Assembly: GCA_000092065.1 (NCBI GenBank)
Contig: CP000585.1
Direction: 5' to 3' (one strand)
DNA length: 64,000 bases
Origin: Ostreococcus lucimarinus
Taxonomy: Eukaryota
Notes under the pieces: model-generated
Told to the model about the DNA's origin: nothing
Database searches by the model: none
Seen by the model: the letters and a program-made list of their open reading frames with translations, nothing else
Program-made: the position numbers and the translations under genes
In this document: positions 16,016 through 60,302 of the stretch, in pieces
Position numbering within the stretch: the first letter of the stretch is position 1
How the letters are laid out: each line of letters starts with the position of its first letter

Positions 16016-16113
16016 CTGCGTTCGCGTTCGACGCGCGATCACGCGTTCATTCGTCAGTCCTTTCCAAAACGAGGCACTCGCCGCGCGTCTCGCGTTCGCG
16101 TCGCGTCACGCAC
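16016..16113 (-). other. spliceosomal intron (98 nt) of the MER3-like gene, donor GTGCGT, acceptor CAG
   Basis: Joining exon 1 ...FNSIQSEMLEFLVNTRRSFVM-S to exon 2 APTGSGKT restores the conserved Ski2-like FNxIQS...FVxAPTGSGKT block in frame. The unspliced frame hits TGA. Confidence 0.7.
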
Positions 16114-16483
16114 TCATCACGAAGCTCCGTCGCGTGTTCACCAAAAACTCGAGCATCTCGCTCTGAATGCTGTTGAAATACCTACGACGCGCGCGTCGTC
16201 GCGACGCCTTCGCGTCAGTCCGTCGCGTCGCGCGCGACACCGTCGTTCCCGCGCGACCGTTGCGAACGCACTTGAAATCAAACGCTCTGGCCGTGTCTAA
16301 AGGTTCTATGTCCGTCGTCGCGCGCAGCGCGTCCCGACGCGGACGCGCGTACATGACGCGTCGCGATGATTTCTTTCGTTCGCGCGCGCGCGCGCGTCGT
16401 CGCGCGACGCGCGTCGTCGTGTGCGGACCGCTCTTTCCCCTCGCGCGAAGTGCCGAGTCTCTCGGAACTGGAGACGAGTCCAT
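16114..16483 (-). CDS. MER3: MER3-like helicase, exon 1 (N-terminal region ending with the FNSIQS Q-like motif)
   Basis: Lies in the frame of ORF 16106..17119. Putative ATG at 16483..16481 (MDSSPVPRD...). The rest of that 337-aa ORF is Arg-rich and probably non-coding. Start is tentative. Confidence 0.45.
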
Positions 16484-16570
16484 CTCGCTGAGTCGTGACT
16501 CGTCAAAATCAAATCGACGTGAGGAATTCGCGCGTCGAGTCGACACACGGCGACGCGCGCGCTCGACTCG
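16484..16570. promoter_or_regulatory. putative bidirectional promoter between MER3-like (-) and patatin-like (+) start codons (about 87 bp)
   Basis: Start codons diverge at 16483 and 16571. Inferred only. Confidence 0.25.
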
Positions 16571-16764
16571 ATGCGCGCGCGACGCGAGACGACGACGGAC
16601 GACGCGAGTCGCGCGTCGGACGCGCGCGACGACGCGTCGACGCCGGAGACGTCGGCGAAACGCGACGCGCGATACGAATATGAGATCGCGTTGGGGAGCA
16701 GTGGATGGTTGTTCGTGTATTACGTCGGCGTCGTCAAGGCGATGCGCGAACGAGGGATGGCGAG
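16571..16764 (+). CDS. patatin-like phospholipase, exon 1
   Basis: ORF 16571..16843 contains IALGSSGWLFVYYVGVVKAMRERGMA, matching the PNPLA glycine-rich ISFAGCGFLGVYHIGV. Donor GTGCGC at 16765. Confidence 0.5.
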
Positions 16765-16926
16765 GTGCGCGTTGAAGATGTTTGCGCGGTGCGCGCGCGG
16801 TTCGGAACGCGACGGCGCGCGAGAGGGTGGTTCGGTGGCGTAAGATGGGGACGCCGACGCCGGACGACGCGTCTCGCGCGACGACGGATGACTGACGAAA
16901 CGGCGGCGATTTTACGATGCGCGCAG

Positions 16927-18313
16927 TAAAACGAAGGTGTACGGGACCTCTGGTGGGGCACTTTCGGGGGCGTTGTTGTTCATGGACTGCGATTTGGACG
17001 CGTTGGCGCAGTATGTGTACATTTGCGCGGCGCGAGCGCGGCGGTCGGTGTTGGGGGCGTTTCAACTGCGCGCGTACTGTCGAGGCGCGATGACGGAGTT
17101 TTGTGATCCCAAGGCGCATGAGTTACTGTCCGGGAGGTTTGAAGTGTCGATCACGAGAATACTGCCGTCGTGGAAGAATCTACGAATCAGTTCGTTTCCG
17201 ACGTATGACTTTTTGATTCAGGCGTTGTTGTGCTCGGCGTGCATCGTGCCGCTGAGCGGGTTGCCGATGTGGTTGCGAGGTTTCGGTTTGTGCCTGGACG
17301 GTGCTGTGACGGACATGCAGGTTTGGAAAGGGTTTAAGAAAGATGGCACCTTCAGCAAGTTGCATTGCAAGGAGGCGAACCCGAACATCGTCATCGTCAA
17401 TCCATTTTATTCGTCGCGGGCGGACATCAAGCCGAGCAAGTACATCCCGGTTTGGTGGTGCTTTTACCCGCCAGAGCCGTACAAATTGAAGCAGCTCTTC
17501 GAGATGGGATACGCAGACGCGCACGATTGGTACGAGCGCACGCACGGCTTAGCGAAAACATTGAAGTCGTCGCCCAAAACGCGAGCGGTGGGCAGCGACG
17601 ACGGCGCTTCCGCGGAAGACGAAGAACCGCCGCGAAGCTGGGCGACAGACTGTCAAGAGTGGGCGAGCCAGAGCGCAGAGACGGCGGCTCGCCGCGCGGC
17701 CGCTGCGGCTGAATCCGCGCGTCGTGCGGCGGCAAAACACGCCGACGAGTTTGGATCTTTCATGAAGCACGAAGCCGAGCTCGTGACGCGCATGAGTTTC
17801 AAAGCAGCCGAGGTTGCGTCCGCGGCGGCGCGAAGCGTGAGCGAGATGAAGGACGACAGAAATTTCGCAGAGCGCGCCGACGCCGCGGCGCACGCCACCT
17901 TAGACGCGTTTGTCGTCGTCGGCAAGGGTACCATCATACCCTTCAGATTGGTTCTCAAAATTGCCGCCTGTTTGCTCGTTTACATGGAGCTCGTAGTTCA
18001 AGCGTTCGTCGCCTTTGTCGGCGCCACGGTGGCGTGCATCTTTCCGGGTAAAGTCGGTCGACAGGGCACTGAGTTGTGGCACAGGTGCCGGGCATTTTCC
18101 CAACCGTTGCCGCGTGTGTTGCTCCAAGCCGTACCAGGAATCAAAATTGAGGCGAAAATCAACGAACGTACCGCTAAACAGCTCGGAGAGCTGTCCGCGT
18201 TGTACCGTTTGCTGTGTTATCTCGTGCACATGGAGGAGCGCGAGTTCGAGATTCTTCGAAAACGACTTTCGCAAGGCAATCTAAGCGCGCTCGTAGACGA
18301 CGTTAAAACGTAG
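16927..18313 (+). CDS. patatin-like phospholipase, exon 2 (GTSGG lipase motif onward)
   Basis: Acceptor cag 16924..16926. Frame reads S-KTKVYGTSGGALSGALL (GxSxG nucleophile elbow). The 162-nt intron carries an in-frame TGA. Continues to the stop at 18313. Confidence 0.55.
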
Positions 18314-18445
18314 AAACGTAGCCCATCATGTATCAAAAATTAGAACGTCTCGTGTTGTTTATTAAAAACTGATTTGTCATCGCGTGTCGCGCTCTTCGAA
18401 AGAGTCCAGAGGCGTCGACGGAAAAAACGCCGCGGGAAGAATCGT

Positions 18446-21981: not shown

Positions 21982-22722
21982 CTAACGATCGGGCGAAAGA
22001 GGTCTAAGTTCGACGGATTTGCTTCGCACGTGGCGCGGCACGCTTCGCGAGCGCCGACCGAACGCGAATCGATACAACACTCCCAGCGTGCGATGCACGC
22101 AGAGCGCCAAGATGAGCGTGTACGTCGCCTGAAACAAAGTGTTTATGTGTCGATCCGTCGCGTAAGGCTTCAGAAGATCGATTTGTTTCATCTTTGCCTT
22201 CATCTTTCGACGCACAGGCGCTAGATTGCTTTGTACGTTTCTGATTTGCCGCGCGTACCCGCGCTTGGCGCGCTCGCCCGCGTTCTTCAGCGCCGGCGCC
22301 GCCTTACGCATCCCGTCTTCAATCAACGGTTTCGCATCGCGAACGAGCGTCTTCGCGCGTTTCACACCCTCATTCGCCGCATCCTTCGCCATTCGCACCA
22401 CTTCCGCCGCACCCGCGCCTCGGCGCGCTTCCTCCAGAGCCTCCTCCAGTTTCGCCACCTCCGCCCGCGCCTTCTTCTTCTCCGCCGCCTCGAAATTCGC
22501 CCGCGCTCGCTCCCGCATCGCCTCGCCTCGAAACTTCGCCGCCTCCGATTTCGCCGCGCCGACGTCCCGCCGCATCGCGCTCAGGTGCCTCTGGCACTCC
22601 GCGACGCCCTCGTTCGCCTCCGCGCGTCCCGCCGCGAGCGCGCACGCGCACGCGCACGCGCACGCCGCGACCAACCTCACCGTCGTCCGACGCCGTCCGC
22701 GCGCGCGTCCCGACGCCCGCAT
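21982..22722 (-). CDS. hypothetical protein: long charged helical region plus C-terminal hydrophobic segment. Possibly the last exon of a multi-exon gene.
   Basis: ORF of 246 aa with Ala/Glu/Lys/Arg-rich helix and a TM-like NTLFQATYTLILALCV. The upstream in-frame sequence ends ...ASTATK then TGA within a GTGAGC donor-like context. A further upstream exon-like block PWHDPMNPSNWKEEH ends at a GTGCGT donor near 23235. Confidence 0.3.
   Translation of the reverse strand: MRASGRARGRRRTTVRLVAACACACACALAAGRAEANEGVAECQRHLSAMRRDVGAAKSEAAKFRGEAMRERARANFEAAEKKKARAEVAKLEEALEEARRGAGAAEVVRMAKDAANEGVKRAKTLVRDAKPLIEDGMRKAAPALKNAGERAKRGYARQIRNVQSNLAPVRRKMKAKMKQIDLLKPYATDRHINTLFQATYTLILALCVHRTLGVLYRFAFGRRSRSVPRHVRSKSVELRPLSPDR
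22643..22668. repeat. (GCGCAC)4 hexanucleotide repeat
   Basis: gcgcacgcgcacgcgcacgcgcac read directly. It encodes the ACACACA stretch of the hypothetical ORF. Confidence 0.8.
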
Positions 22723-23770
22723 GTCCGCCGCTCACTTCGTCGCCGTCGACGCGCGCAGCGCGAACCCGTGCGCGAACACGAGCACCGCCAGCGCCGCGCC
22801 CACCGGCGCCCCGATCTTAATCCTCGAATCGCTCGACCGCCTGACCGCGATCCCGAGCGCCGGTATCGCCGGCGCGAGCGCGATCGGCCAGAGGTTTCCG
22901 TATTCCACCGCGCGCGTTCGTCTCGCGTCGCGCGCGTCGCTCGCGTCGCGCATGCGCGCGCCGCGATCTGTCGCGCGGGCCGTCGGTCTTCTTCTTCGCG
23001 TTACAATCGATCGTCGCGCGCGCTACGAGCTACGACAGCGCGCTTCTCGCGCCCGCGATCACCACCGCCCATCCACCGAGCACGGCGAACACCACCTGCG
23101 TCGCGTCGCGCGCGTCAGTCGTGGAATTCGCGTCGCATCGGCGTCGAGGGCGTCTCGGATCGATCGATCGATCGCGCGCGTCGCGGCGTCGCGCGATCGA
23201 TCGCGCGTCGCGGTCGCGCGCGACGCGTCGCGAGACGCACGTGCTCCTCCTTCCAATTGCTCGGGTTCATGGGGTCGTGCCACGGGTAGGGCACCTTGGG
23301 CGGCGCGTTCGGGTCGCTCGCGTACGACCGGCGCGCGATCGTCGACGGCGCGCGCGCGGGCGCGTTCGCGAGCGCGCGATGCGCGACGCGACGGAGGGCG
23401 GCGTGCATGACGTCGAGCGACGGCGCGCGAGGGCGACGGTCGAGCGCGGGCGTCGACGAGCGTCGACGAGTGCGGGGGGGGGCGCGAGAGGGCGACGCGC
23501 GGGCGACGACGCGGCGCGGGAGAGGGTTCGAGGAAGGCGCGCGAGCGACGGGCGCGAACATCGATTGGGTGCGCGCGGTGTTTTTCTTCGCCGGGCTGGG
23601 GATCGGGTTGCGCGCGTTCGGCGAGCGGGGGGTGCGGGGACGCGCGAAGACGCGCGCGCGCGACGAAGGCGGGCGACGCGGCGGCGAGCCTTTGTAATAA
23701 TTTGTTGTAATCATCACATCACTAGGCGGCTAGCTATGGTCAAACGCTCGAACGTTCTTTACCGCTTTTT

Positions 23771-24475: not shown

Positions 24476-24699
24476 CTACACGCGCACATCGCCATCGCAC
24501 CGTCTCGTCAGTCTCCACGTCGAGCTTCGATCGCGTCGCGTCTCCCATCGCGCGGTGACTCAGCCGAAGAAATTCAACCATAATATCGTCTAACCTCACG
24601 AGCGTGAACTCATCAGAAGCGCGGATATTTTTATCATCATCGTCACCGATCTCGCATCCCATCGCGTCGCGTCGCGTCGCGTCGCGTCGCTCGACGCAC
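24476..24699 (-). other. spliceosomal intron (about 223 nt) of SF3B4, donor GTGCGT after ...EEDAEY, acceptor TAG before GGTATTAAA
   Basis: Phase-0 junction gives [20 protein letters not shown], matching human [20 protein letters not shown]. Confidence 0.65.
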
Positions 24700-24954
24700 G
24701 TATTCCGCGTCTTCCTCGTTTCTGAACTCCACGAACCCGTACCCCTGGTGCGTGCTCGTCACCCTATCCTTCGGCACGTACACGTTCGTCACCGGTCCCG
24801 CCTGCAGGAACAGCTCCCACAGCACCTCCTCCGTGACTTGCGGGTCGAGATTCCCGACGTACACCGTCGCCTCGGCGTTCCTATCCGCGCCGTGCTGCCC
24901 GAGCAAGTTCACGCCCGCGCCCGCGGTGATTCGCCCGCCTGCGATCGGCGCCAT
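24700..24954 (-). CDS. SF3B4: SF3B4 exon 1 (N-terminus and first half of RRM1)
   Basis: ATG at 24954..24952 (MAPIAGGRI...). [57 protein letters not shown] matches human [57 protein letters not shown]. Confidence 0.8.
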
Positions 24955-25437
24955 TCGTCCGTCAGTCGCCGCATCGCGCGCGCATCGCGCCGCGCGCGTC
25001 GCTCGTCGCGCGATTCGCGTTCGTCGTCGTCGCGCGTCGCCGTCGAATCGCGCGCGAACGCACCCGCGCTCCCACCGACGCTCGCCATCGTCGTCGACGC
25101 CTCGCGCGGTGTCGCGCCTTCTCGTTCGCGCCGTCGCGCGTCGCGCCCTCGCGCGCGCGCGCGCGCGCGAGACGGTCGACGCGCTTCTTTCGCGCGTTCG
25201 CGCGCGCTCGGAGCGCTTTTTCGAGCGTCGCGCGGCGCTGTGCGGCGACCGGGACGCGAATCGCGCCGCGTCCCGGTCGCGCCGCCGCCGCTCGGCGCCG
25301 CATTTCGCGCCTCGCCGCGCGCGCGTCGACGCCCCGTCGCCGAGCCGCGCGCGTCGAGCGCGCGAAACGCCGCGTCGCGGTCGCCTCGCGCGCGCCTCGC
25401 GTCGGTTCGCGCGCTCGACGCGCCGCGCGCGCGCGCC

Positions 25438-25995
25438 ATGCGCCCGCTCGAGGAGTCCGAGCTCGAGCAGGTGCTCGCGAAGCTGTTCCAGTTCGTCGGG
25501 AAGAACATCGAGCGGGTGCTGCGGCGCGCGGACGCGCCGCACTCGCTGCGATTGCACAAGAAGCGGGTGTACTACGTGCGGGACGAGGTGATGCGGCGGG
25601 CGACGAGCGTCGGACGGGAGCAGTTGGTGGCGCTGGGGACGTGCCTGGGGAAGTTTACGCACAGCGATAAGTTTCGGTTGACGATCGGGGCGCTGGACGT
25701 GCTGGCGGCGCACGCCAAGTATAAGATGTGGGTGAAACCGACGAGCGAGATGGGGTTCATGTACGGGAATCACCTGCTGAAGAGCGGGTTGGGGAGGATA
25801 TCGGAGAACACGCCGGCGAACGCGGGGGTGGTGATTTACTCGATGGCGGACGTGCCGGTGGGATTCGGCGTCGCGGCGAAGAGCACGCAGGATTGTCGTA
25901 AATTAGACCCGAGCGCGATCGTGGCGTATCATCTCGCGGACGTGGGGGAGTACTTGCGCGCGGAAGACACGTTCGTGAGCGGGAAGAAGGATTGA
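25438..25995 (+). CDS. NIP7: 60S ribosome subunit biogenesis protein NIP7
   Basis: ATG 25438. [23 protein letters not shown]...[10 protein letters not shown]...LGTCLGKFT...[17 protein letters not shown]...[15 protein letters not shown] is collinear with human NIP7 (PUA domain). 185 aa. Confidence 0.9.
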
Positions 25996-35189: not shown

Positions 35190-35300
35190 GACGCGAGACG
35201 CGGGAGACGATGCGGGAGACGTCGCGACGCGAGACGCGGGAGACGACGCGGGCGACGACGCGGGAGACGACGCGACGCGAGACGCGCGACGCGAGGCGCG
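35190..35300. repeat. degenerate 12-mer tandem array (GACGCGGGAGAC-like) in the 5' leader of the giant gene
   Basis: cgcgagacgcgggagacgatgcgggagacgtcgcgacgcgagacgcgggagacgacgcgggcgacgacgcgggagacgacgcgacgcgagacg. The ORF track reads it as a fake RETSRRETRETTRATTRETTRRE N-terminus. Confidence 0.75.
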
Positions 35301-35323
35301 AACGTCGAGGAGGGCACGGGACG

Positions 35324-38300: not shown

Positions 38301-41300
38301 CGTCATACGTCGTCACGGATGGCGATGATGCGGGCAAAAGCAGCAACGTCGACGCTAACGAGCACATACGAATCAATCTCGGCAGTTGGGCATCCGTGTC
38401 GACTGTGGAGGTGTGCCATAAACGTCTGGAATCATCGGCGACGTCGATGTTCAGCGCGCACGTCCAAGATTACGACCCGGGTAAAAGTACTTACTTTGGA
38501 CACGATTGTTTGATGGACTCGGTGAGGGACGTGTGCGACGAGACGCTCCGAGGCCAGGGAGGCATAGGGTATCGAGGGTGCCAGACGAAGACGAGGAGCG
38601 GCCGCACGTGTCAGCAGTGGGATTCGCAGTCGCCCCACGGGCACTCGAACCGAAATTGCGCCAAGGGCTCGTGCGGGAACAACTACTGCAGAAATCCTGA
38701 CGGCGCACCCACGATCTGGTGCTACACGACGGACAGATACAAACGCTGGGAGTATTGCGATCCGGATCCGTTACCACACGCGTGTTTGACGTACACGTGT
38801 AAAGGCACCGACGTGAATTCGTTTCACGGACAGTACGTCACCGTGAAAGCCCTGACGAAGGCTCAAGTGACGGAAATCAAGGTCAACGGTCGCAAGACGA
38901 AATGCAAGTACACCGCGGTCACCGACGATGACGGCGAATACGCGATGGATCTCAAAGACACCTCAGGCAAGCTTCCGGTGAAAGCGACGCTGCACATCGG
39001 GGCTTACAAGGAGGAAATTTTCCCTGAAACTACGGAAGTCTTGATTGACTCAAAGAGGAACGCTCAAGGACAGTACCCGGTCCCGAAGAGTCAGGCGCAC
39101 AACGTGTTGCTCATTCTTCGAGAGAATTTCGAAACCTCCGAGCTTGGAATGCTTCGAAACGACAGGCGAACCGAAACCACGTCTTCGCCGCACGCGTCGG
39201 CGAATGGAGTTTACGTGGACGAATTTGCAGCTATGCAAGAGCTCGGATACGACGAGTTTGAAAACGCTGATGAATTTGAAAACGGTTTGCAAAACGACCA
39301 AACAGAGTACGATGTCCATCACGATGGCGGAAATGAGACGGCGGGGAACAACACGACGGCCGCGCTCGGCTGGGGATGCGACGAGACGCTCCGAGGGTGG
39401 AGACACGAAGGGTATCGAGGGTGCCAGACGAGGACGAGGAGCGGTCGCACGTGTCAGCAGTGGGATTCGCAGTCGCCCCACAGGCACTCGAGACGAAACT
39501 GCGCCAAGGGCTCGTGCGGGAACAACTACTGCAGAAATCCTGACGGCGAACCCACGATCTGGTGCTACACGACGGACAGACGCAAACGCTGGGAGTATTG
39601 CAATCCGTTACCTCAACCAGTAAACTGCTACGGTTATTGGGGACAGTGGTCGAATGAGTGTACTCCAACTTGCACGAGCGGCCGACGTTACAGATGGAGG
39701 TACTACAGAATCTCGAGATATCCTAGGCATGGCGGTCTGAGTTGCTCGTACAAAAACGGGCAAAAGGGCTGGGGGTACTGTCCGCCGAAACCGTGTCCAG
39801 TGAATTGTGATGGCAGGTTTGGATCGTGGTCGACGTGTAGTGCGAAGTGTGGTTGGGGCAAGAGACAAAAGACGTTCACAATACACACAGCAGCGGCACA
39901 CGGCGGCCAATCGTGTAGTCACAAGAACGGGTACACGGTAACCGAAAACTGTTATTCCCAACACTGTCCGCCACCCCCGCCGCCACCCCCGCCACCAGGC
40001 GCCGCCGAGGTGGAGGAATTCATCGAGTGGGTGCTTTTGAAGGGCGTCGAATCAAATCGAAAAGGGCATGTCGAAAGGACGCTAACAGGGTCAGGATGGA
40101 CGGCGGGTGCTGTGAGTAAACGCGCCATTCGTGGAGCATCCGATACCGTTCGAGGCGTCTCCGCCGTGTGCAAAGAGTCGACGAGCCAACACAGGATGAT
40201 TGCGATGAATTCACAGTCGACTGCGGATTCCACCTCTTACCAAAGTCTTGATTTCGCAATTTACTGTTTTCCTTGGAACTCGGTGAGTTATGTACGAGTC
40301 TATGAGAGAGGCAAAGCTTTTGGGAATGCTGCAAAGGCGTATAGTGAGAGCGCCGTCGTTCAGATCGCGCTCAACGATGCCGGCAAGGTGGAGTATTTCG
40401 TGGACGGTTTGAAGCTCATGACGAGCGATCAGACGGTGACGTATCCACTTCACGTTGATGTGAGCCTACACGAACAAGGCGCGTCGCTGGAGGATGTGCG
40501 CTGGACTAGGAGAGTCTCGTCACCTCCGCCCTCACCTCCACCTTCGCCGCCTCCGTCCCCTCCGCCTTCGCCGCCTCCGCCCCCTCCGCCTTCCCCGCCT
40601 CCGCCGAATCACGAACTCGAGGACGTTGATTTCGACGGATCGGGTAATGTGATGCGGAGCGAGTTGGTCGACTACATTGAAGCTATCACAATATCGTCCG
40701 AAGGTGGCCACGTCATCATTACGGACGATGTATGGGCGAAGCTCGATCGGGATGAAGACGGCGTGCTCGACGCGACTGAATTTAAGGACGTTGTGAACCG
40801 TATCGAGGCGCAACAGTTGGTCGTGGAGCCAATCATCGTGTTCCCACTTCAAGATGCCCAGTACATGTACGATTTCAGCATGTTTCAGACGTCTGACGAC
40901 GCTGCAAATAGCGGCCCGCGCACGGGCCACGTGCTAGAAGGCGGCGAATCGTGTGAAAATTTGATGATTGTGAGAAGTCGCTCCGCCACTCTGCCGTTCG
41001 GAAACGCTCAATGGACAAAATTTTACGAGACATTGCGAGACGAGCAACACCGTTTCGAGTGCAGAAATCTGAGTAAAATCGAGGTTCCAGCAATCGACGT
41101 CGGCGCGGTGGACAGCACGTACGTCATACCCGTGCTCGCGCACAAGAACGGCACGAATTACCTCATACTCGACACCACGTCCGTCGCGGTGCATACGTCG
41201 AACGAGACGAAAGCGTTGGATATGATGCATCGAATGACTCGAGATAACTTTCGTCTGCGCGTTCAAGCCCAAAAGCGGCTTCCGGATATCTTGCACAGCT

Positions 41301-44300
41301 TTAACAAGCCTCCCGTGCCGCGGGGTGCGTTGCCCGAGGCGCCGAGTGACGAGGAAATCGTCGAACAGGTATTTTCAGATCAAGTGGCGTTGGATAGGGT
41401 CACTTTATCAGTCAAGCATAAACGCGTCGAAGAGAAAGACTTTACGGATGACACGACAGTTATCGTAAACGGTGCCGTACTGTTCCCCAGGGATCTCGTC
41501 GAACAATCCAACGACTGCGGACTCTTCAAGGCGACTATTGAAGTATTCGAACCCGAAGGAGAAGTTGAGGAATACCATACGGATGAGCGAGGCTTCTTCA
41601 AGTTTGCTCTCACTCGTGGGAAAACGTTCAACATACGCCCAAAATACAAGAATCACACGATATGCTACGCTGGCAAAACCATAGAGAACGCTGTCGAAGA
41701 CGTGCACACATGCAAAGGACGCAGCGTGGTCAAGACGCTTCCAAACGTTCAAGATGGCAACTTTGTATTTTTCACCGACGTCACGCGAGGTGTCATCGAC
41801 CTTGGACTATACCACGGAGAGTGTGAACGGCGATACAGCGGTGCTGTGTTTAAGATCACGCCGATCAATGGATGCCACGCTCCAAAGTTTGTGAAGAGCG
41901 AAGAAGTTGAAGGGTGGAATGTCGCAAACACCGGGATGAGTGAGGACGCTAAATTTTGGCCGTTCGCCGCCATGGATTACTCGATCAAGCTCGTGTCGGG
42001 GCCTGACGTGAATGGCATCCAACCGTTGATTGAGAATGAGCCGTGGGCGGACGGATGTGGTACGGAGCCTGGCTCGATGGTGGCTTTCTTTCGATCACGA
42101 AACGCCCATGAACGAATGGCGGCCATGCGCGACGACTACGATTTGGTGACAATTCGGTACAAGTATCACGGCTACATTTGCGTTGAGATCGTGGACATTC
42201 CCAAAATACGAGATCCATTGGAAGTCTGTTACGATCCAAACGAAGCGGACGGTAATCTCACGATTCAACATTTCCTCGGAACTACGACTTCCGAAGATTT
42301 GGGCAGCGTGAGCGGTCAGATTCTTCTCCAAGCGAAAGTGTTCGAATTGCATCTTGATCAAGTCGACGGCGAGCCTGTGCTTTCAAAATGCTTTGAAGCG
42401 TTACCTAACAAGGAAGCTCAGACGGGCAGCACTCTGCTCAGTTTCAGACAGTCGGTCACCGATGAAGACGACAATGAGTGCCATCCAAACCGAGGCGGCG
42501 GACCACTGTGTGATTTTGACACGACGATCGAGCCTGCGTCCGAACTCGTCATTTGGAATACAGACGGTGATACCAGCGTGGAGGTCGTCGCTGGTACGCC
42601 TAATCTCGCCGGTAATCATCGACGAACTGTGGAATTCACCATCAAGCGCTTCGATACGTACAAACTCGTCACCGCGTACGCAAAGCGTGAGCTCATACCT
42701 CTGGGCTCGAAACCTCGAGGAGAAGGGCTCTTCGGACCGGACAGTGACGATGTCTACTGGGCGACTGTGCCTTTGGAGGGTTTGGTCTACACCGTCGTGC
42801 ACGATCCACCCGGTGGTCTCTCGTACGCGGAATTATCGACGGGCTCTCAAATTGGACTTCAGTTTGACTTGGTTGGGAAACGTATGGCGAGCGAGGGCAA
42901 AGGTGGGGCGTCGAAGAAACAACTTCCCGAAATCGATAAGTCCGTCGATGTTGGTTTCAACGCCGGATGGATCGCCGAAGGTTCTTTGTCGACGGACCTG
43001 CATTTGATCTCGTCAAAAGGCGAGTTCAAAACTAAAACGGATGGTCCAACGATGCGTATAACGAGCAAAGAAGACAAGGGGTGGAGTCTCGAAACCACGA
43101 CAGAACGAACGATTCGTTCGAGCAAGGACGCAGGTACTCCTGGGAGAGCAGGCGATGTCATTCTCGGCGGTGGTATCGAGCTCGTGTACAAAATATCGGA
43201 CATCTTGGATGTCGTAAACGATGTTCGAACACTCAAAAAGCCTTGCTTGTACGTGTATGGCGAAATCACGTGGTTACCGCGAAAGCCGACGTCGTACATC
43301 ATGAGCGTCGCGTCGATCGAGACACAAGTCATGCCTAATCTGTACTACTTGCGAACGTTGGTGCAGGAAGGTGGCATCGAAGCAGACGGGTCGGAAATGT
43401 TTTATGACTGCGCTTCCGGCGCGACGAGTAAAGAAATGACCAAGTGCACGAAAGAGGATCAAATCGAAGCTTGGATGCAATATCTCGACAACAAGATTGA
43501 CCTTTGGCGTCGAACACTTGAATGGTCTTCTCCGAAAGTGTTCACCATCGATGAGGGTGGTGTGAAGACGAAGTTTTACGAAGCCATCGAGAGAATCACA
43601 AAACCGGCGTCTGATGGTGGTTTTATGCACACGAACTACAAAGTCCAGGTGGAACAATTCAAGAAGGCGTACGCCAGACCGATTAAGGATATTATCGAAG
43701 AGGTCGGCAGTGCTTGGGATTCAAGTTTCTTCATGATGCCTTTCAACGGTATCGGCCCACCACCGTTTTTTGACGACCCGAGAGTAATTGGTGGCGTGGA
43801 TTGGATGCTTGATTCGCGGTACTGGGAGTATGGTAAAGGCGACACAGCTACGTACAGTAGAATCCGTGGGATTACACCTCGGACGGATTCTGACGCGAGA
43901 ATCGCCGCTTTTGCCTCCTTGGATGCCATTGTCAATACCGGAGGCATCATCGACACGGTGACGAAGAATTTAGACGCGCCGAAGAAACTCGCCGCCCGTC
44001 GCAAGGCGGCTGCCGCCGCTGCTGCTAAGATAAGTAAATCGTATGCTGCTAAGCAAAGGCTATTAAAGGCGGCCTCTAAATGGAAAAGTCTTGCAAAGAA
44101 ACCACCGCCGGGATTCATCACGAGATCCGCCCAAAAGCTCACGGCGGCCAAGAACATGGCCACAAAGGCGGCCAAGACCACAGCCGGACAAGTTGCGGGC
44201 GCCATCTTGCTCAGCGCGGCGGTAGCGGGCGCAGTCGCAGCTGGCCCGGCGATGGATCAGATGGGCTACAAGTATGCCGCCTATCCACGCAAGTATTACG

Positions 44301-46834
44301 AGGATGGCATACCGGCATTTGAAGAAAACTTCTTCGACGATGATTCTGGAGTGCTCACAAAAGAAGACCAAGCCAAAGATGAAGACGGGATGCGAGGAGC
44401 CTATACGTGGGGGATGTTCAGTTCGGCGACGAACGATTTGTTGCGACAATTTAAAAGTTGTGCCGGGAGAGAGTGCAATCGCGATGATATCAGAGTCGAA
44501 ACGCTGTCGATGAGCAACACATCTTTCGGCGAAGACTACTTACTTTGGAACACAAATGACGCACCTGATGTGTCGCGGAGGGTCGTGGCGTCCTTCACGG
44601 GTGGACAAGCTGCTACGGGTATGAATGTGACGACGAACGTGAACGCTACAGACGGTGTACCCGACAAGGGGACGTTATTATTGACGTTCGGCGGCGGTGG
44701 TCACACCGCAGATTATTCATTTTCTTCGAATGAAAAGATTGCAGATCTTCACACCAGCCTCGGTGTTCAACTGTCAGCAAAGCAGTCCAACAAATACAAA
44801 CTCAAACTCGGAGGCTTGCTCGGCTCGACCGTTCAACTTGCCATGGCGCTCGGCGGGGTGGACGATGAGGCTGTCTATACCTTCAAAAAGTCATTCGCTG
44901 AAGATCGAACGTTCGCTTGGAACAGACACGCCTCTCTGAAAACGTTGTACAGTCTAGGTGACGCTCAACTCGGAGATAAGTTTGTCGTGCAGGTTGGAGA
45001 AGACGTGCGCTTTGGTACGCCGGTGTTCATCACAAAGGGTGGCAGAAGCTCGTGTCCCGGTGAACCTTTGACGATGTTTCGACAGGCGGGCTTTTCCTTA
45101 TCCAAAGAAACTTCGTTTAACGAAAATCTGAATCCTGATGAAAGTGCTTTGTTACACTTGAAATTGACCAACGAGTCGCCGTACAAGGAAACGTTTCCGC
45201 TCGGAATGCGCATTGTTGACGGTCTCGTGATGTCGGTCCACAAAGTGATTCAGGACATGTACGAAACGCTGGCCAAGGAAGACGTGACAGGGTTGGACGT
45301 TTTGAAAGCCGTCGATAATTCGATCGCGTCGCTCGCTATCGGGAAAGATGCCGACGTCATCAAAACAATGAAAGAAAACGCGCGAGTGGCCGTGGAAGAA
45401 CACTCGGCGACAGCAGTGGACGTCGCAGCGGTGGTTGTACAAGCCTCGCGGAGAGCTCCACCAACGTTTGAAGACTTGCAGAACATCGAGTTCAGTATGG
45501 GTGGAGAGGAAGTATACTTTGGCGACGTATTACCTCTAAAATTTGTGGACGGTGAAGATTTGAAAGTTCAGAAGAAGGTACTTGAGACGTCTTTCGCGCT
45601 TACCGTGACGGCTGCGAGCCCGTCGAGTCTTCGACTGGAGCACGTCGCCGTCGTCGTCATGAGTTTATGCGAACACGAAATCAGCCTAATGTCAAAGTTC
45701 GGTCGAGAACCGATCAGCACGAACACTCTTCCGCTAGGATTGATGACGTGGAATCAAAAGTGTCCGAAAGTCGCCTTCGACGGTTCCACAGTGGCGGATT
45801 ACTTGTTCTCGAGCGTCTCATCTGCCACGCCCAAGCCACTCAAGTTGACCGTCTTCAATCCGGACGGAGCTTTGTTATGGCCTGGCTCTTCGGATGACGT
45901 CCGAGCTATCAACCCGAATCTTCGATTCGTTCGGTTGCAATATCGTCCCGCGAGCGGCGGCGAATGGATCACGGCAAAGTCTGAAGACAGCGATCCAAAG
46001 TTCAGTTACAAGAAAAACCTGTTATGCGACGGGTCACGTCTCGGTGGTTGCACTTTTGACTGGGACGTCAATAACCAGTACGAAAAGCTTCTCAGTGGCT
46101 TTAAGGATAACATTTACGAGTTGAGATTGAAGAACTTTTGCTTTGGCACGGAAAGTCGTCCGATCAGCGCCTTGGCGGACAGCACCGTTCACGAGTACGT
46201 CTCTGATCAAATCCTCACGCTCAGAGTGGACACCAAGACGCCGATTCCCGGCAGGTCGTATCCTTCGTTCAAGCGATTTTACACTGTCGAGTTCCCCGAA
46301 GCGATCGACTGCTCGGATCAAAAAGTTGCCATCACGAAGAAACGCGCATCCTGCGGAGACGACGGGCAAAGCGTCAATCAAGCCGTGAGCGAAGACGCAA
46401 TCAAGTCAGGCTTTGACTTCCAATGCTCCAATAACGAGGTTGGCTTCAAGTGGATGGTTGGATTTCCTAACACTGAAGTGGGTCAGTACGCCGTCGAAGT
46501 GAGCGGTGTTCGTGACGAAGCCGGGAACGCCGCCGCGCCGTTTACCTTCGTCATGGACGCGAACTGCGCGTCTTCTCAAAAGCTGTCCCTCGCGCGCTTC
46601 GGTCTAGGCGCGAAGAAACGGTCGACTGAGGAAACGGGCGATGTGCCAACGAGTGCATTTGACGTTCCAATCACATCGATGCCCGGCACGTGGGTTCTCG
46701 CGGGGTGCTGCCTCGTCGCCGTCTTCGCCGTCGTCGTCGGCGTTTTCCGTCGCGCGCCGCGCGTCGAGGACAAGGAAAAATCTCCACTCTCCTTTGTCGC
46801 CCGTCGACACCCGCCGTACGGCGCGGTGGTGTAA
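35324..46834 (+). CDS. giant secreted/TM-anchored mosaic protein: signal peptide, 3 kringle domains, TSP1 repeats, polyproline (SPPP)n spacers, EF-hand pair, C-terminal TM anchor. Single exon, 3,836 aa.
   Basis: ATG 35324 followed by MRRWRCVDAVVVGAALMLMATVTSALSA. Kringles with CRNPDGEPTIWCYTT..RWEYCDP at three places. TSP1-like WGQWSNECTPTCTSGRRYR and CSAKCGWGKRQKT. PPPPPPPPPPGAAE and SPPPSPPPSPPPSPPPSPPPPPPPSPPPPN. EF-hand-like DFDGSGNVMRSELVDYIE and DRDEDGVLDATEFKDVV. TM near the C-terminus WVLAGCCLVAVFAVVVGVF followed by RRAPR. Confidence 0.8.
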   Translation: MRRWRCVDAVVVGAALMLMATVTSALSARGAGAHRDAEGEGDVGGVVDDAADASRGANETAGNDATAALGWGCDETLRGWRDEGYRGCQTRTRNGRTCQQWDSQSPHGHSRRNCAKGSCGRGNNYCRNPDGEPTIWCYTTNRNVRWEYCDPLPQPVHCAGRWGSYTSCDALCGSGRKYKTYTVTRNAQHGGRSCSYSNGAKHYADCTTSCAAPTVSIGNPLTRVASNTVDFGLSVKHSVACGGDCLTSAWSRRWMVKIFATVRKDGVSCSSYGAYLPCKRWDDFRDDTTHPSQLLGLTTDTGALDPGTYVIEYVAVLNHYITKQELSRTTGTHTFSIERGCESILPSASSDSGVENSELTKYVLLSADDFVRAPCDKLHDVRESIFRKYDTNPTDGVLDYDELDRAIREQGGDGYILKVWNQIRPLRLSLGHFMEAIVAPHTCASSESVQSVSFKSVVYPSTEAGRETTRKDCAKNAGAMAVDWGYGPKNPPKSGDTVCVFVDGVLFQVNEPKNTAPPHSKDHHSEVAGLWTLTKITDKRPVVGAIGDVQPSLVAQFTFDTEREIGDTVRSDRIFSAAPLASGEKARPYISYSGQHISACSGASGGQCIVARGDGFNYVGDSLGGAVAFSAWVRVAESSATTLIEFSGTDGQLRNSFTLVMDCSSSACTLRASYDSVGTGGNLAKKEISAPMRQWVLVGFTLSHNAGLKLFALPDDSTSTTTASHPSWPKDTLPKLPNIKLFSASRGGGQQHIDDVRLYAGVMDMEMFFIARDCGRGTLCAMRAHATPSHRRVVCVFTQVKGAKTGQPACAGALYYDGTAIDVRASMDLAGVFFEFRDTAWEEKSFEIERRAPAVNGNFDSKFDTVVLIEGGLKGCAAKFSSITYIDRDASYTPYSEWLYRITTKNPDSDDANEITYLLSPQLTFRTPWMSQIEGRVLAGASTEGVRNVRMCAEFDTFVTRTPATEDFQADVEYENLAAFKSVTHSNRAQTSTSYVVTDGDDAGKSSNVDANEHIRINLGSWASVSTVEVCHKRLESSATSMFSAHVQDYDPGKSTYFGHDCLMDSVRDVCDETLRGQGGIGYRGCQTKTRSGRTCQQWDSQSPHGHSNRNCAKGSCGNNYCRNPDGAPTIWCYTTDRYKRWEYCDPDPLPHACLTYTCKGTDVNSFHGQYVTVKALTKAQVTEIKVNGRKTKCKYTAVTDDDGEYAMDLKDTSGKLPVKATLHIGAYKEEIFPETTEVLIDSKRNAQGQYPVPKSQAHNVLLILRENFETSELGMLRNDRRTETTSSPHASANGVYVDEFAAMQELGYDEFENADEFENGLQNDQTEYDVHHDGGNETAGNNTTAALGWGCDETLRGWRHEGYRGCQTRTRSGRTCQQWDSQSPHRHSRRNCAKGSCGNNYCRNPDGEPTIWCYTTDRRKRWEYCNPLPQPVNCYGYWGQWSNECTPTCTSGRRYRWRYYRISRYPRHGGLSCSYKNGQKGWGYCPPKPCPVNCDGRFGSWSTCSAKCGWGKRQKTFTIHTAAAHGGQSCSHKNGYTVTENCYSQHCPPPPPPPPPPGAAEVEEFIEWVLLKGVESNRKGHVERTLTGSGWTAGAVSKRAIRGASDTVRGVSAVCKESTSQHRMIAMNSQSTADSTSYQSLDFAIYCFPWNSVSYVRVYERGKAFGNAAKAYSESAVVQIALNDAGKVEYFVDGLKLMTSDQTVTYPLHVDVSLHEQGASLEDVRWTRRVSSPPPSPPPSPPPSPPPSPPPPPPPSPPPPNHELEDVDFDGSGNVMRSELVDYIEAITISSEGGHVIITDDVWAKLDRDEDGVLDATEFKDVVNRIEAQQLVVEPIIVFPLQDAQYMYDFSMFQTSDDAANSGPRTGHVLEGGESCENLMIVRSRSATLPFGNAQWTKFYETLRDEQHRFECRNLSKIEVPAIDVGAVDSTYVIPVLAHKNGTNYLILDTTSVAVHTSNETKALDMMHRMTRDNFRLRVQAQKRLPDILHSFNKPPVPRGALPEAPSDEEIVEQVFSDQVALDRVTLSVKHKRVEEKDFTDDTTVIVNGAVLFPRDLVEQSNDCGLFKATIEVFEPEGEVEEYHTDERGFFKFALTRGKTFNIRPKYKNHTICYAGKTIENAVEDVHTCKGRSVVKTLPNVQDGNFVFFTDVTRGVIDLGLYHGECERRYSGAVFKITPINGCHAPKFVKSEEVEGWNVANTGMSEDAKFWPFAAMDYSIKLVSGPDVNGIQPLIENEPWADGCGTEPGSMVAFFRSRNAHERMAAMRDDYDLVTIRYKYHGYICVEIVDIPKIRDPLEVCYDPNEADGNLTIQHFLGTTTSEDLGSVSGQILLQAKVFELHLDQVDGEPVLSKCFEALPNKEAQTGSTLLSFRQSVTDEDDNECHPNRGGGPLCDFDTTIEPASELVIWNTDGDTSVEVVAGTPNLAGNHRRTVEFTIKRFDTYKLVTAYAKRELIPLGSKPRGEGLFGPDSDDVYWATVPLEGLVYTVVHDPPGGLSYAELSTGSQIGLQFDLVGKRMASEGKGGASKKQLPEIDKSVDVGFNAGWIAEGSLSTDLHLISSKGEFKTKTDGPTMRITSKEDKGWSLETTTERTIRSSKDAGTPGRAGDVILGGGIELVYKISDILDVVNDVRTLKKPCLYVYGEITWLPRKPTSYIMSVASIETQVMPNLYYLRTLVQEGGIEADGSEMFYDCASGATSKEMTKCTKEDQIEAWMQYLDNKIDLWRRTLEWSSPKVFTIDEGGVKTKFYEAIERITKPASDGGFMHTNYKVQVEQFKKAYARPIKDIIEEVGSAWDSSFFMMPFNGIGPPPFFDDPRVIGGVDWMLDSRYWEYGKGDTATYSRIRGITPRTDSDARIAAFASLDAIVNTGGIIDTVTKNLDAPKKLAARRKAAAAAAAKISKSYAAKQRLLKAASKWKSLAKKPPPGFITRSAQKLTAAKNMATKAAKTTAGQVAGAILLSAAVAGAVAAGPAMDQMGYKYAAYPRKYYEDGIPAFEENFFDDDSGVLTKEDQAKDEDGMRGAYTWGMFSSATNDLLRQFKSCAGRECNRDDIRVETLSMSNTSFGEDYLLWNTNDAPDVSRRVVASFTGGQAATGMNVTTNVNATDGVPDKGTLLLTFGGGGHTADYSFSSNEKIADLHTSLGVQLSAKQSNKYKLKLGGLLGSTVQLAMALGGVDDEAVYTFKKSFAEDRTFAWNRHASLKTLYSLGDAQLGDKFVVQVGEDVRFGTPVFITKGGRSSCPGEPLTMFRQAGFSLSKETSFNENLNPDESALLHLKLTNESPYKETFPLGMRIVDGLVMSVHKVIQDMYETLAKEDVTGLDVLKAVDNSIASLAIGKDADVIKTMKENARVAVEEHSATAVDVAAVVVQASRRAPPTFEDLQNIEFSMGGEEVYFGDVLPLKFVDGEDLKVQKKVLETSFALTVTAASPSSLRLEHVAVVVMSLCEHEISLMSKFGREPISTNTLPLGLMTWNQKCPKVAFDGSTVADYLFSSVSSATPKPLKLTVFNPDGALLWPGSSDDVRAINPNLRFVRLQYRPASGGEWITAKSEDSDPKFSYKKNLLCDGSRLGGCTFDWDVNNQYEKLLSGFKDNIYELRLKNFCFGTESRPISALADSTVHEYVSDQILTLRVDTKTPIPGRSYPSFKRFYTVEFPEAIDCSDQKVAITKKRASCGDDGQSVNQAVSEDAIKSGFDFQCSNNEVGFKWMVGFPNTEVGQYAVEVSGVRDEAGNAAAPFTFVMDANCASSQKLSLARFGLGAKKRSTEETGDVPTSAFDVPITSMPGTWVLAGCCLVAVFAVVVGVFRRAPRVEDKEKSPLSFVARRHPPYGAVV
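35507..35776 (+). repeat. kringle-encoding repeat copy 1 (near-identical at nucleotide level to copies 2 and 3)
   Basis: gctcggctggggatgcgacgagacgctccgagggtggagagacgaagggtatcgagggtgccagacgaggacgagg...aacaactactgcagaaatcctgacggcgaacccacgatctggtgctacacgacg. Confidence 0.8.
38536..38766 (+). repeat. kringle-encoding repeat copy 2
   Basis: Same block with a few substitutions (gccaggga..., gacggcgcaccc). Antisense ORF 38432..38644 repeats the MPVGRLRIPLLTRA antisense ORF artefact. Confidence 0.8.
39343..39606 (+). repeat. kringle-encoding repeat copy 3, followed by TSP1 repeats
   Basis: Near-identical to copy 1, including the preceding gacggcgggaac...cgacggccgcgctcggctgggga. Confidence 0.8.
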
Positions 46835-51961: not shown

Positions 51962-52031
51962 GCGTTCAGGGCGAATTGTGACGCCGGGCGGTTGGCGCCG
52001 TCGGCGGTGGGTCGGTCGATGGGATTAAAAG

Positions 52032-57347: not shown

Positions 57348-57435
57348 ACGGCGTCGCGCCGCGCCCGACGCCGCGCCGCGCGCGTTGAACGCTCGACGCG
57401 CGCGCCCGCGCGCTCGCGCTCGCGCGCGCCGCGCG
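57348..57435. promoter_or_regulatory. putative bidirectional promoter, SNF2/RING (-) / membrane protein (+), about 88 bp
   Basis: Inferred from the divergent start codons. Confidence 0.2.
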
Positions 57436-57654
57436 ATGGCGTCGAGCGCGCCCGCGGCGCGACGGCGTGGCGTCGCGAAACCACCGCTGATGCCGCGCGC
57501 GAACGAACGCGACGACGACGACGCGCCGGCGCGCGCCGCGCGGGACGGGGCGACGGCGACGGGGACGATGCGACGGACGCCGAGCTTTTCTGACGAGCTC
57601 GGACACTATTTCAAGGGGTTCGGCAGGCACGACGCGTACGCGGGAGGAGAGCAG
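57436..57654 (+). CDS. predicted multipass membrane protein, exon 1
   Basis: ATG 57436. MASSAPAARRR...SFSDELGHYFKGFGRHDAYAGGEQ ends at phase 0 before a GTGCGC donor at 57655. Confidence 0.4.
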
Positions 57655-57799
57655 GTGCGCGCGCGCGTCCCGCTCGCGCGCGAAGACTCGACTCGACGCG
57701 AAGGCGAACGACGACGCGCGGTGGGCGAGGGGCGAGACGGACGGGAAAACGAGGACTGACGATGGCGCGCGATGATTCGCGGGCGAACGATCGGCGCAG

Positions 57800-58438
57800 A
57801 TACGACCTTTGATGCGAGGATGGGTGCACTTCGCGTGCGTCGTGGCGGCGCTGACTGGACGAGGGCTGGGATACTTTAAGAACATGCCGGAACGCGCGTC
57901 GCTGTTCGTGCAGTGCACGATGTTGACGTATTTGGGGTCGACGTGCTTGCACATGGTGCCGTGGAAGACCGCGCTCGGGTACGATGTGGCGTTGGCGATG
58001 GATTTTATCGGGATATCGTGGGGCTTCACCTCGCACTCTATTTTGTGGACGGGCGGCGTGCACAGTTTTAGTCAATTCGGCGCGGTGGCGGTGTTCGCGT
58101 GCATGTGCTTGATGCAGGTGGCGGCGTTTAAACAAAAAAATAAACGCGTGTTGATGTTTATGCGTCGTCGGCGGCTGACGCTGATCCTTTTGAATATGAT
58201 TTTCCTGGGCGTCGTCGAGGCGAGAGCCATCGAGGATTTCAAGACGATGGTGGCGATTCAGGTCCTCTCCAAGATTGTCTCTCCGTGGTATTTCATGGCG
58301 TGCACGCGCTTCGACGCGAAGCACAAGTCATTCTTTGAGATTCAAGGCGTGTGGGGGCCGCATGAAAATTGGCACGTCATCATTCTCGTCGTGCACTTGC
58401 TGCAGCTCAAGGCGCTGCTGTCGCAAGACTCGTTTTGA
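57800..58438 (+). CDS. predicted multipass membrane protein, exon 2 (5-6 hydrophobic segments; HxxxH-like GPHENWHVIILVVHLL near the C-terminus)
   Basis: Acceptor cag 57797..57799. Frame IRPLMRGWVHFACVVAALTG joins ORF 57809..58438. 145-nt intron. Family not recognised; possibly PAQR/ceramidase-like. Confidence 0.4.
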   Translation: MRPLMRGWVHFACVVAALTGRGLGYFKNMPERASLFVQCTMLTYLGSTCLHMVPWKTALGYDVALAMDFIGISWGFTSHSILWTGGVHSFSQFGAVAVFACMCLMQVAAFKQKNKRVLMFMRRRRLTLILLNMIFLGVVEARAIEDFKTMVAIQVLSKIVSPWYFMACTRFDAKHKSFFEIQGVWGPHENWHVIILVVHLLQLKALLSQDSF

Positions 58439-58676
58439 CGCGTCGCGACGGAGATTGACGCGCCCGCGAGCGGACGAGATGCTCGCGAGGTGACGCGTAA
58501 TGGGGAGGCGTCAATAATATTGTACTTGAACGACGTATTGTTCGTGACGCGCGCGACGATGCTCGCTTGTAATTGGAAGAAGTGACGCGTTGTGACGCTC
58601 GCCTTCGCGCTCGGCCCGGCGCTCGCCGCACACTCCCGCGCGCTCGAGCTCGTCGTGCGTCGAGAGCGCGCGCGAC

Positions 58677-58740
58677 ATGTCGTTGAAGAAACTCTACGAG
58701 ACCCACCGCGCGGGTCAAGAGCAAGTCAAGCGCGAAGTCG
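58677..58740 (+). CDS. BLOC1S1: BLOC-1 subunit 1 (BLOS1/GCN5L1), exon 1
   Basis: ATG 58677. MSLKKLYETHRAGQEQVKREV matches human MLSRLLKEHQAKQNERKELQEK. Exon ends in phase 1 before GTGCGT at 58741. Confidence 0.65.
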
Positions 58741-58852
58741 GTGCGTCGTCGTCGTTCATTCGTTCGCTCGTTCGCGCTCGCGCGTAACACCAAACGCGCG
58801 CTCGCGCCGTGACTGACGCGCACCGCGCCGCGCGCGCGCCGTCTCGCTCCAG

Positions 58853-59172
58853 ATGCGCTGCGCAAAGAGACCGTCGCGCAGGTGTCCGCGCTCGCGGACG
58901 CGATGACGGATTCGGTGAACCACGGCGTGGTTGAGGTGTTTGAGAATCAAAAGCAAGTCGAGTCGTCGGCGCGCGCGCTGAACGAGACGGCGACGGCGTT
59001 TCGAGAGCGGTCGAGCGAGTGGGCGACGTCGCTGGAGGCGTTCGATAAAGAGCTTAGAGATATCGGGGATTTTGAAAATTGGGTCAAGGCGATGGAGCAC
59101 GATTTGGCGACGTTAGCGGCGGCGTTGGAAGCGAAGGTGAACGCGAAGGCGGCGAATGCGGCGGAAAAGTAG
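58853..59172 (+). CDS. BLOC1S1: BLOS1 exon 2
   Basis: Acceptor ccag at 58849..58852. Joined frame gives D-ALRKETVAQVSALADAMTDSVNHGVVEVFENQKQV...IGDFENWVKAMEHDLATLAAALE, matching human IGDVENWARSIELDMRTIATALE. Total 127 aa. Confidence 0.7.
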
Positions 59173-59250
59173 CGAGCGAGTATTGTACAGTAAACAACGA
59201 AGATCTAGCATGAATCGTAGCGTCATCATCGAATCAAATCGTTTCATGAC

Positions 59251-60184
59251 TCACGCGTCGGCGGCTTGCATTTCGACGTCGTCGTTCTTCTCTTTGTGCG
59301 CCGAGACGGCGTCGAACAGGGCGCATTTGACGGCGTACGACGCGAACATTTTCGATTGCTCTATCGCGAGCGATATCGCGTCTTGCGTCACCGTGCCGAG
59401 CGCGGAAACATCGCCTGCTTTCTCTAAATTCGATCCCGACGTCGGGGACATCGACATCGAGGCGAGCGACGCCGAAGACGTCGTCGTCGGACCGCCTCGC
59501 TTGATTTCCTTTTCGGCTTTGGCAATCTTCCCCTCCATGTCCGAGACTTGACTCGCGATGAGTTTTCGATTCGCCAGCAGCGTCGACGAACTGAGTGTGT
59601 TGACCCAATACTTCTTCGTCAACGAATCCAAGTTACGCGCGTCGAGCGAGCTCTTGAAAAAGCTCACATCCAACGAGTAATACTTGTTCGCGTGTACGCC
59701 AAAGTCTTCTATCTTGCTCTTTGGGATTCCTAGATTACTCGACGTCGACGGCTCCTCGGGCGCGGTGTATCCATCCGGATACGTCCGAAACGCTCCAATC
59801 TCCACCTTTTCCGCGCGACTCGTCCGGATCGGATCGATGACGATGGCTAAAAACGGTTCCCCGTACCTCTGATTCATGCTCTGCGTGTTCACGTCGATGC
59901 CCGACAACCAGCAGCCGTATCCTGGATGCGAGTGATACCACCCGACGACGTTTTCGTGTCTCCCGACCGCCTTACACGTGTGCGTATACTCCACCATGTA
60001 TTCATACGCCTCCGCCTGCGCGTTGACGCGCGTTTCCGTGCCTTCGACCGGGAGTTCGAACACGTCCAGCACGATGAAGGCGTCGTCCTTCGCGTACCCT
60101 TGCAGCATGCCCATGACTTCGATATCCCCACCGCGTTTGCAGTGCGCCGTCATCTTCATCAGCGCCAGCGCGGACACCTTTACC
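59251..60184 (-). CDS. CSN5: COP9 signalosome subunit 5 (CSN5/JAB1), exon 2 (MPN/JAMM domain onward)
   Basis: [19 protein letters not shown]...[17 protein letters not shown]...[18 protein letters not shown] (JAMM motif) ...AFRTYP...KIEDFGVH...[10 protein letters not shown] is highly similar to human CSN5. Confidence 0.88.
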
Positions 60185-60302
60185 CTAGAACATAAACGCG
60201 CGAGCGTTTCGCGCCGTCGTCAGTCGCCCGGACGCGTCGCGCGCGGCGTGCGACTCGAGAAAAGTGCGATTGCGAGCGCAATCTGCCGGGGACAACCGTT
60301 AC
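60185..60302 (-). other. spliceosomal intron (118 nt) of CSN5, donor GTAACG, acceptor TAG
   Basis: Joining exon 1 ...KPWARDPHYFK-R (phase 2) to exon 2 [11 protein letters not shown] reproduces human [23 protein letters not shown]. Confidence 0.7.

Follow-up and report, generated by a model that had tools for sequence, protein, structure and literature searches.

Several genes in a 64-kb stretch of Ostreococcus lucimarinus DNA (64,000 nucleotides of contig CP000585.1; hereafter the window) appear in a plain open reading frame (ORF) map as fragments separated by short intervals. Are these intervals introns, of which kind, and do they reveal anything about splicing in this genome that was not known before? 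A preliminary description of the window had proposed six such introns, one in each of six genes, with a biased GTGCGY donor. We found nine, spread over seven genes (the six introns first proposed and three more, one of the additions being a candidate treated separately below), and conclude that they are almost certainly ordinary U2-type GT-AG spliceosomal introns, belonging to the constrained class that O. lucimarinus carries outside part of chromosome 2. The finding is correct but ordinary: the signals have been published and most of the introns are already annotated.

The chromosome carrying the window is nuclear and 847,696 bp long, and belongs to O. lucimarinus CCE9901, five of the spliced products being exact matches to RefSeq proteins. 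The gene order SNF2 helicase–membrane protein–BLOS1–CSN5–trehalase–GST is the same in the O. tauri record CAID01000005.2, which is O. tauri chromosome 5 as read off the accession number. Because of the RefSeq identities and this synteny, the window is assigned to a gene-dense nuclear chromosome of a picoeukaryotic green alga, outside the atypical chromosome 2. G+C content along the window ranges from 52% to 71%.

Reading frames, gene models and splice signals

All nine introns begin with GT and end with AG on the coding strand, and their lengths run from 90 to 224 nt. In the six intervals proposed at the outset, GT and AG were found at exactly the positions that had been reported, including those of SF3B4, which had been given as approximate and prove exact. 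The length range of 98-223 nt that had been claimed for them holds at its lower bound and fails at its upper one, since the SF3B4 intron measures 224 nt. When these six intervals are read unspliced, each brings in stop codons or a change of frame; when each is excised, two ORFs are fused into a single frame. The proposal that excision restores a conserved protein block across the junctions was borne out by Pfam for MER3, patatin, BLOS1 and CSN5, with a single match spanning the junction in each case, and by gapless alignments for SF3B4 and CSN5. The spliced membrane protein gave no Pfam match.

The MER3/HFM1 helicase gene had been described as split by one intron, and two are needed to reproduce the RefSeq protein. 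Removal of intron 2 (16016..16113, minus strand; 98 nt, phase 1, GTGCGTG...GACTGACG...CAG) yields the junction ...RRSFVM/SAPTGSGKT... (here and below a slash marks the splice point), which lies within a DEAD match at residues 62-253. Intron 1 (16182..16271, minus strand; 90 nt, phase 2, GTGCGTT...GGACTGACG...TAG) was found via its branch motif; it holds no in-frame stop and is therefore invisible in the ORF map. With both introns removed, the product of 1060 amino acids (aa) is identical to XP_001418083.1; the product with one intron removed is not on record by exact look-up. The patatin-like phospholipase gene has its intron at 16765..16926 (plus strand; 162 nt, phase 2, GTGCGCG...GACTGACG...CAG), with the junction ...RERGMA/SKTKVYGTSGG... 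inside a patatin match at residues 40-195, and the spliced protein equals XP_001417843.1 residue for residue. In SF3B4, excision of intron 2 (24476..24699, minus strand; 224 nt, phase 0, GTGCGTC...GACTGACG...TAG) creates ...EEDAEY/GIKILNM..., across which the product aligns without gaps to the solved human SF3B4; with this intron removed, the protein is identical to XP_001418087.1.

The other three proposed genes lie towards the far end of the window. The intron of the multi-pass membrane protein (57655..57799, plus strand; 145 nt, phase 0, GTGCGCG...GACTGACG...CAG) leaves the junction ...AGGEQ/IRPLMRGW..., and the spliced product starting at MRRTPSF is XP_001417852.1, longer N-termini being absent from the record by exact look-up. 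Splicing of BLOS1/GCN5L1 (58741..58852, plus strand; 112 nt, phase 1, GTGCGTC...GACTGACG...CAG) gives ...QVKREV/DALRKE..., with the junction at residue 21, inside a GCN5L1 match at residues 8-115. The RefSeq protein for this gene, XP_001417853.1, is a partial product of 90 aa without exon 1, and an exact look-up showed the full product of 127 aa not to be on record; the annotated BLOS1 of O. tauri (130 aa) aligns gaplessly across the O. lucimarinus junction. For CSN5 (JAB1), the intron at 60185..60302 (minus strand; 118 nt, phase 2, GTAACGG...CGACTGACG...TAG) is removed to give ...DPHYFK/RVKVSALAL..., within a JAB match at residues 40-152 and gapless against CSN5b. The spliced CSN5 product (353 aa) is identical to the ORF of an MMETSP transcript, and no identical RefSeq protein was present among the cluster members examined.

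A seventh gene encodes a 77-aa protein in two exons (CDS 23408..23030, minus strand) around an intron at 23096..23240 (145 nt, phase 0, GTGCGTC...CGACTGACG...CAG), and its spliced product equals XP_001418086.1. The preliminary description had taken two donor-like motifs, at about 23235 and 22730, as hints of an additional multi-exon gene. That suspicion was half right: the GTGCGT at 23235-23240 serves as donor in the 77-aa gene, which is already in RefSeq, and the GTGAGC near 22730 is no donor (see the last section). The introns of four of the six genes first proposed (MER3, patatin, SF3B4 and the membrane protein) were likewise already contained in RefSeq models. When ten further long ORFs of the window were scanned with Pfam, no additional broken genes came to light. 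Relaxed ACTGAC matches elsewhere in the window have no donor nearby and either sit within long ORFs or are on the wrong strand, a search that covers introns with consensus signals only. All but one of the nine introns fall before about codon 90 of their genes, a 5' bias typical of intron-poor genomes.

We then compared the splice signals. Six donors read GTGCGT, two GTGCGC and one, that of CSN5, GTAACG. The branch box GACTGACG, which the preliminary description had overlooked, is present in all nine introns, its branch A lying 19-40 nt before the 3' end (31-40 nt in the six introns first claimed). The acceptor is YAG throughout, most commonly CAG; the YAG ends that had been asserted for the six are CAG in MER3, patatin, the membrane protein and BLOS1, and TAG in SF3B4 and CSN5. 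Intron G+C content is 58-74%, and none of the nine has a polypyrimidine tract.

The asserted donor bias stands: GTGCGY accounts for 2.2% of the GT-started hexamers in the window and for five of the six donors first claimed, and against this background the chance of such a score is P ~3e-8, falling to a binomial P = 4e-13 for eight donors of nine. The bare hexamer is not enriched, with 170 copies in the window against 186 expected, and only 8 of the 170 serve as donors. Hence GTGCGY alone finds introns poorly, and specificity resides in the branch box: the GACTGACG octamer occurs nine times in the 64 kb, every copy being intronic, so that it outperforms the donor (9/9 copies versus 8/170). The three copies outside the six proposed introns were what led us to the three additional ones. 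The composite signal, defined as GTGCGY followed by GACTGACG and then AG, occurs eight times in the window as opposed to 0.9 +/- 1.0 times in 300 dinucleotide-preserving shuffles of it, none of which reached eight.

U12-type introns have the donor consensus [AG]TATCCTT and the branch box TCCTTAAC; nothing similar was seen in the donors or branch regions of the nine introns. Rfam detected no snRNA genes in the window. From general splicing biology and the papers cited below, the GTGCGY donor (consensus GTGCGTG) would be recognised through pairing with U1 and U6, and the CTGAC box would pair with U2, after which the spliceosome would take out the lariat and ligate the exons.

The signals match a published class. 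Irimia & Roy 2008 (PMC2483917; PLoS Genet 4:e1000148) analysed 319 O. lucimarinus introns outside chromosome 2 that were confirmed by expressed sequence tags. They reported a donor of 4.8 bits with "the atypical consensus GTGCGTG", ACTGAC in 87% of the introns and GACTGACG in 66.5%; the introns of chromosome 2 are dense, with a weak GTRNGT donor (1.9 bits) and ACTGAC in only ~5% (PMC2483917). The introns of the window agree with the non-chromosome-2 class in organism, donor consensus, branch box, short length and compartment, and differ from it in that GACTGACG is found in 9/9 rather than in the 66.5% observed genome-wide, and in the single GTAACG donor. They stand apart from the introns of the low-GC half of chromosome 2, which share the genome and presumably the spliceosome and are weakly marked, whereas strong signals are present in 9/9 here. 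Yeast-type constrained introns offer a more distant parallel, being likewise few and 5'-located, with a near-invariant donor and a branch box at a restricted distance, and with some snoRNA hosts among them. The yeast signals are GTATGT...TACTAAC as against GTGCGT...GACTGACG in the window, where the introns are G+C-rich, and the lineages are unrelated.

Two points about the value of the donor need correction. It had been called species-specific; the Mamiellales share the preference, printed as 'GYGCGY' (2022 preprint 10.1101/2022.06.08.495308), and the signal is therefore lineage-wide. The single U1 candidate of the Mamiellales keeps the standard ACUUAC pairing region, with no compensating change (10.1101/2022.06.08.495308). 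The donor had also been offered as an aid to re-annotation, and it is not new in that role: GTGCGTG together with GACTGACG was published for O. lucimarinus in 2008 (PMC2483917). These signals have already been used in the debate on how intron-poor genomes come to have rigid splicing signals.

Transcript evidence and comparison with relatives

We looked for sequences in which the intervals are already missing. Three contigs (L001-L003) carry the 353-aa CSN5 product as an uninterrupted ORF and skip exactly 60185..60302. Two others (L010 and L011) skip exactly 57655..57799 of the membrane gene, with the junction GGAGAGCAG/ATACGACC. Counting the MMETSP ORF of CSN5, the interval is thus absent from cDNA-like sequence for two of the nine introns.

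Relatives were compared at syntenic loci, taken from marine metagenome contigs and from O. tauri (L008). Contigs L004 and L005 are ~75% identical in nucleotides to the window, L006 is ~92% identical and L007 comes from a further relative. Where the intron site is shared, the donor and branch signals are kept and the interiors have diverged. In L004, the MER3 sites read GTGCGC...TGACTGACG for intron 1 and GTGCGT...TGACTGACG for intron 2. The site in the 77-aa gene reads GTACGT...TGACTGACG in L004 and GTGCGT...CGACTGACG in L006, with the branch GACTGACG, and that of SF3B4 intron 2 combines GTACGT with GACTGACA in L004 and GTGCGT with GACTGACG in L006. O. tauri has GTGCGTG...GACTAACG...CAG at the BLOS1 site, and the CSN5 donor is GTACGT both in O. 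tauri (...GCTGACG) and in L007.

Other sites differ between lineages. Patatin has no intron in L004 and L005, where the uninterrupted ...RERGMASKTKVYGTSGG... is exactly the predicted spliced junction. The membrane-gene intron is present in L007, at ~60 nt, and absent in O. tauri (L008 5140..5180), where the gene reads straight through with exactly the sequence that splicing is predicted to create in the window. Conversely, NIP7 contains an intron in L004 and L005 (GTGAGA...GACTGACT...CAG; L004 ~9016..9268) and is intronless in the window (~25724..25728, plus strand) and in L006. In a closely related contig (L012; 15.9 kb, JGI sample 3300035228, 99.4% identical to the window), the membrane-gene intron is precisely missing (~5219) and the BLOS1 and CSN5 introns are kept. 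If L012 is genomic, this would be a possible presence/absence polymorphism of the membrane-gene intron, the alternative being that the contig is RNA-derived. A 4-nt repeat, GCAG, is found at both ends of the interval missing from L012. With about a dozen intron positions compared between lineages, we regard it as conceivable, though rather doubtful, that Ostreococcus intron content is turning over on short time scales, gained introns arriving with the full GTGCGY/GACTGACG set.

Could the intervals instead stay in the RNA, within pseudogenes or as products of frameshifts or assembly errors, their GT and AG ends being coincidental? The case for splicing does have limits. Most RefSeq models are computational predictions, and for MER3, patatin, SF3B4, BLOS1 and the 77-aa gene the support consists of such models, homology and relatives. 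Transcript-level evidence is limited to the CSN5 and membrane-gene introns, and the cDNA nature of L001-L003 and of L010/L011 is itself deduced from their missing introns. The GTAACG donor of CSN5, moreover, makes the donor rule less than absolute. Retention in RNA would nevertheless leave unexplained a three-part signal that stands in the correct order and spacing in all the intervals, against 0.9 expected by chance, as well as the contigs that lack exactly the interval in CSN5 and in the membrane gene. It also fits poorly with relatives that either carry an intron at the same site or code without interruption for the exact spliced junction, and with the strong conservation of the exons on both sides. 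We consider the chance that the intervals remain in RNA to be practically negligible.

A different question is where spliceosomal introns with such uniform signals come from. They might be recently spread copies of a mobile family like the introners of Micromonas, in which case shared descent would explain the uniformity. The signals are indeed unusually uniform, and some introns are lineage-specific: those of patatin and of the 5' end of SF3B4 are not in L004, and that of the membrane gene is not in O. tauri. Introner elements, which form families of repeated sequence, are also known in the sister genus Micromonas (PMC3879977, PMC4540971). An all-against-all comparison of the nine introns, in contrast, yielded only CG-rich low-complexity matches of 15-22 nt and no common body sequence; intron lengths vary from 90 to 224 nt; and most positions are common to distant relatives in which the intron interiors are unrelated. 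Irimia & Roy, besides, attribute the uniformity to constraint acting on the splicing signals of a genome with few introns (PMC2483917). The introns of the window thus resemble introners in being partly lineage-specific and differ from them in sharing no body sequence, and it is on this ground that we reject introner copies for all nine and hold such an origin to be highly improbable.

One of the contigs used above has an unexpected upstream part: L010 1..1627 encodes an ORF of 503 aa in the reverse orientation and does not match the part of the window that precedes the membrane gene, which may reflect a chimeric contig or a rearrangement in the strain.

The 5' end of SF3B4 and an intronic snoRNA

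The ninth intron is a candidate at the 5' end of SF3B4. The interval 24939..25063 (minus strand; 125 nt, phase 1, GTGCGTT...CGACTGACG...CAG) is very probably an unannotated intron, judging from its signals and from the proteins of related lineages. Exon 1 would be 25064..25088, with its ATG at 25088, and splicing would place this ATG in frame with the SF3B4 ORF, giving MASVGGSAG/GRITAGAG.... The RefSeq model XP_001418087.1 starts at ATG 24954, a position within the interval and 13 nt before its 3' end. At least five related lineages have uninterrupted N-termini that match MASVGGSA (MTSVSGSA..., MATVGAAG..., MAALSGAAG..., MAALSGAAGGRITAAAG), which marks the eight codons preceding the interval as homologous coding sequence.

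The competing view is that the RefSeq model is right, translation starting at ATG 24954 and 24939..25063 being 5' untranslated region or promoter. XP_001418087.1 does begin at 24954, and an exact protein look-up found SF3B4 with the alternative N-terminus not to be on record. A scan of the metagenome collection returned no match to the spliced 5' junction; it returned none to the junction of intron 2 either, and because that well-supported junction was missed as well, the scan is uninformative. Two further points bear against the intron. The equivalent exon 1 of L006 is 26 nt long instead of 25 nt, so that with the same splice sites its upstream ATG would be out of frame; since L006 is a single metagenome contig, the extra nucleotide may be genuine or may stem from an indel error. 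The support for the intron, moreover, is comparative only. On the other side, the RefSeq start has to accommodate a full set of signals in the interval, splicing of which preserves the frame from the upstream ATG, and a stretch, MASVGGSA, that matches the N-termini described above. If the interval were not spliced, ATG 25088 would open an out-of-frame ORF of 59 codons running across the RefSeq start. Finally, the codon at the RefSeq start is not an ATG in L006. We therefore regard the RefSeq start as unlikely to be the true one and favour the 5' intron. A TARA scaffold (L009) that seemed to have a 'MAPIAGG' start and no intron was set aside as uninformative, since its upstream part is unrelated and the scaffold may be chimeric.

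Among the lineages compared, the candidate 5' intron is confined to O. lucimarinus and its closest relative, L006, and parsimony would therefore favour a lineage-specific gain within a splicing-factor gene. Two RefSeq models thus look improvable, that of BLOS1, in which exon 1 is missing, and that of SF3B4, which probably starts inside a 5' intron that was not recognised.

Intron 2 of the same gene carries a further element. Rfam predicts a box C/D snoRNA at 24556..24645 (minus strand; snoU36a, RF01302), scoring 68.9 bits (gathering score 45; E = 1.2e-12) and matching model positions 1-90 of 90. The match displays the C and D boxes, the terminal stem and both guide regions. Its sequence is almost the same in L004 and L006, whereas the surrounding intron sequence differs. 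The presence of the snoRNA explains why SF3B4 intron 2, at 224 nt and 58% G+C, exceeds the other eight introns in length and falls below them in G+C content. The intronic U36/U36a box C/D snoRNAs of plants and animals likewise reside inside introns of housekeeping genes; the host of the predicted snoRNA here is SF3B4. Together with the intron differences between lineages, the intronic snoRNA adds small but concrete data for studies of intron gain and loss.

The locus near 22730 and other ORFs

The second donor-like motif of the preliminary description, GTGAGC at ~22730-22735, overlaps the TGA stop of a conserved ORF of 73 aa (22953..22732, minus strand). This ORF ends 9 nt upstream of an ORF of 246 aa (22722..21982, minus strand) and is in the same frame, and used as a donor, GTGAGC could fuse the two in frame through a 60-nt intron. 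We rejected this possibility: a branch box is lacking, and the 246-aa ORF begins with an ATG of its own, followed by a stretch resembling a signal peptide. Nor is the donor conserved, the first ORF of L004 ending at the same ...TK* with no GT donor there. In L004, the ORF of the 73-aa type overlaps the next ATG by 4 nt (AAATGATGG). Judged by their sequences, the 73-aa product is a small membrane protein and the 246-aa product a signal-peptide/coiled-coil protein. Both ORFs are conserved, and their close tandem arrangement would fit a shared mRNA; we propose 21982..22953 (minus strand) as a candidate bicistronic locus. Such loci have been documented in green algae (PMC7896298, PMC11291117).

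The start of the 246-aa protein includes a (GTGCGC)4 microsatellite at 22640..22663 (minus strand), which encodes the alternating ...ACACACACA... and accounts for a cluster of GTGCGY copies that are not donors. Elsewhere in the window, 35210..46834 (plus strand) is occupied by a single ORF of 3874 codons, whose start is repetitive (RETSRRETRETTRATTRETTRRET...).

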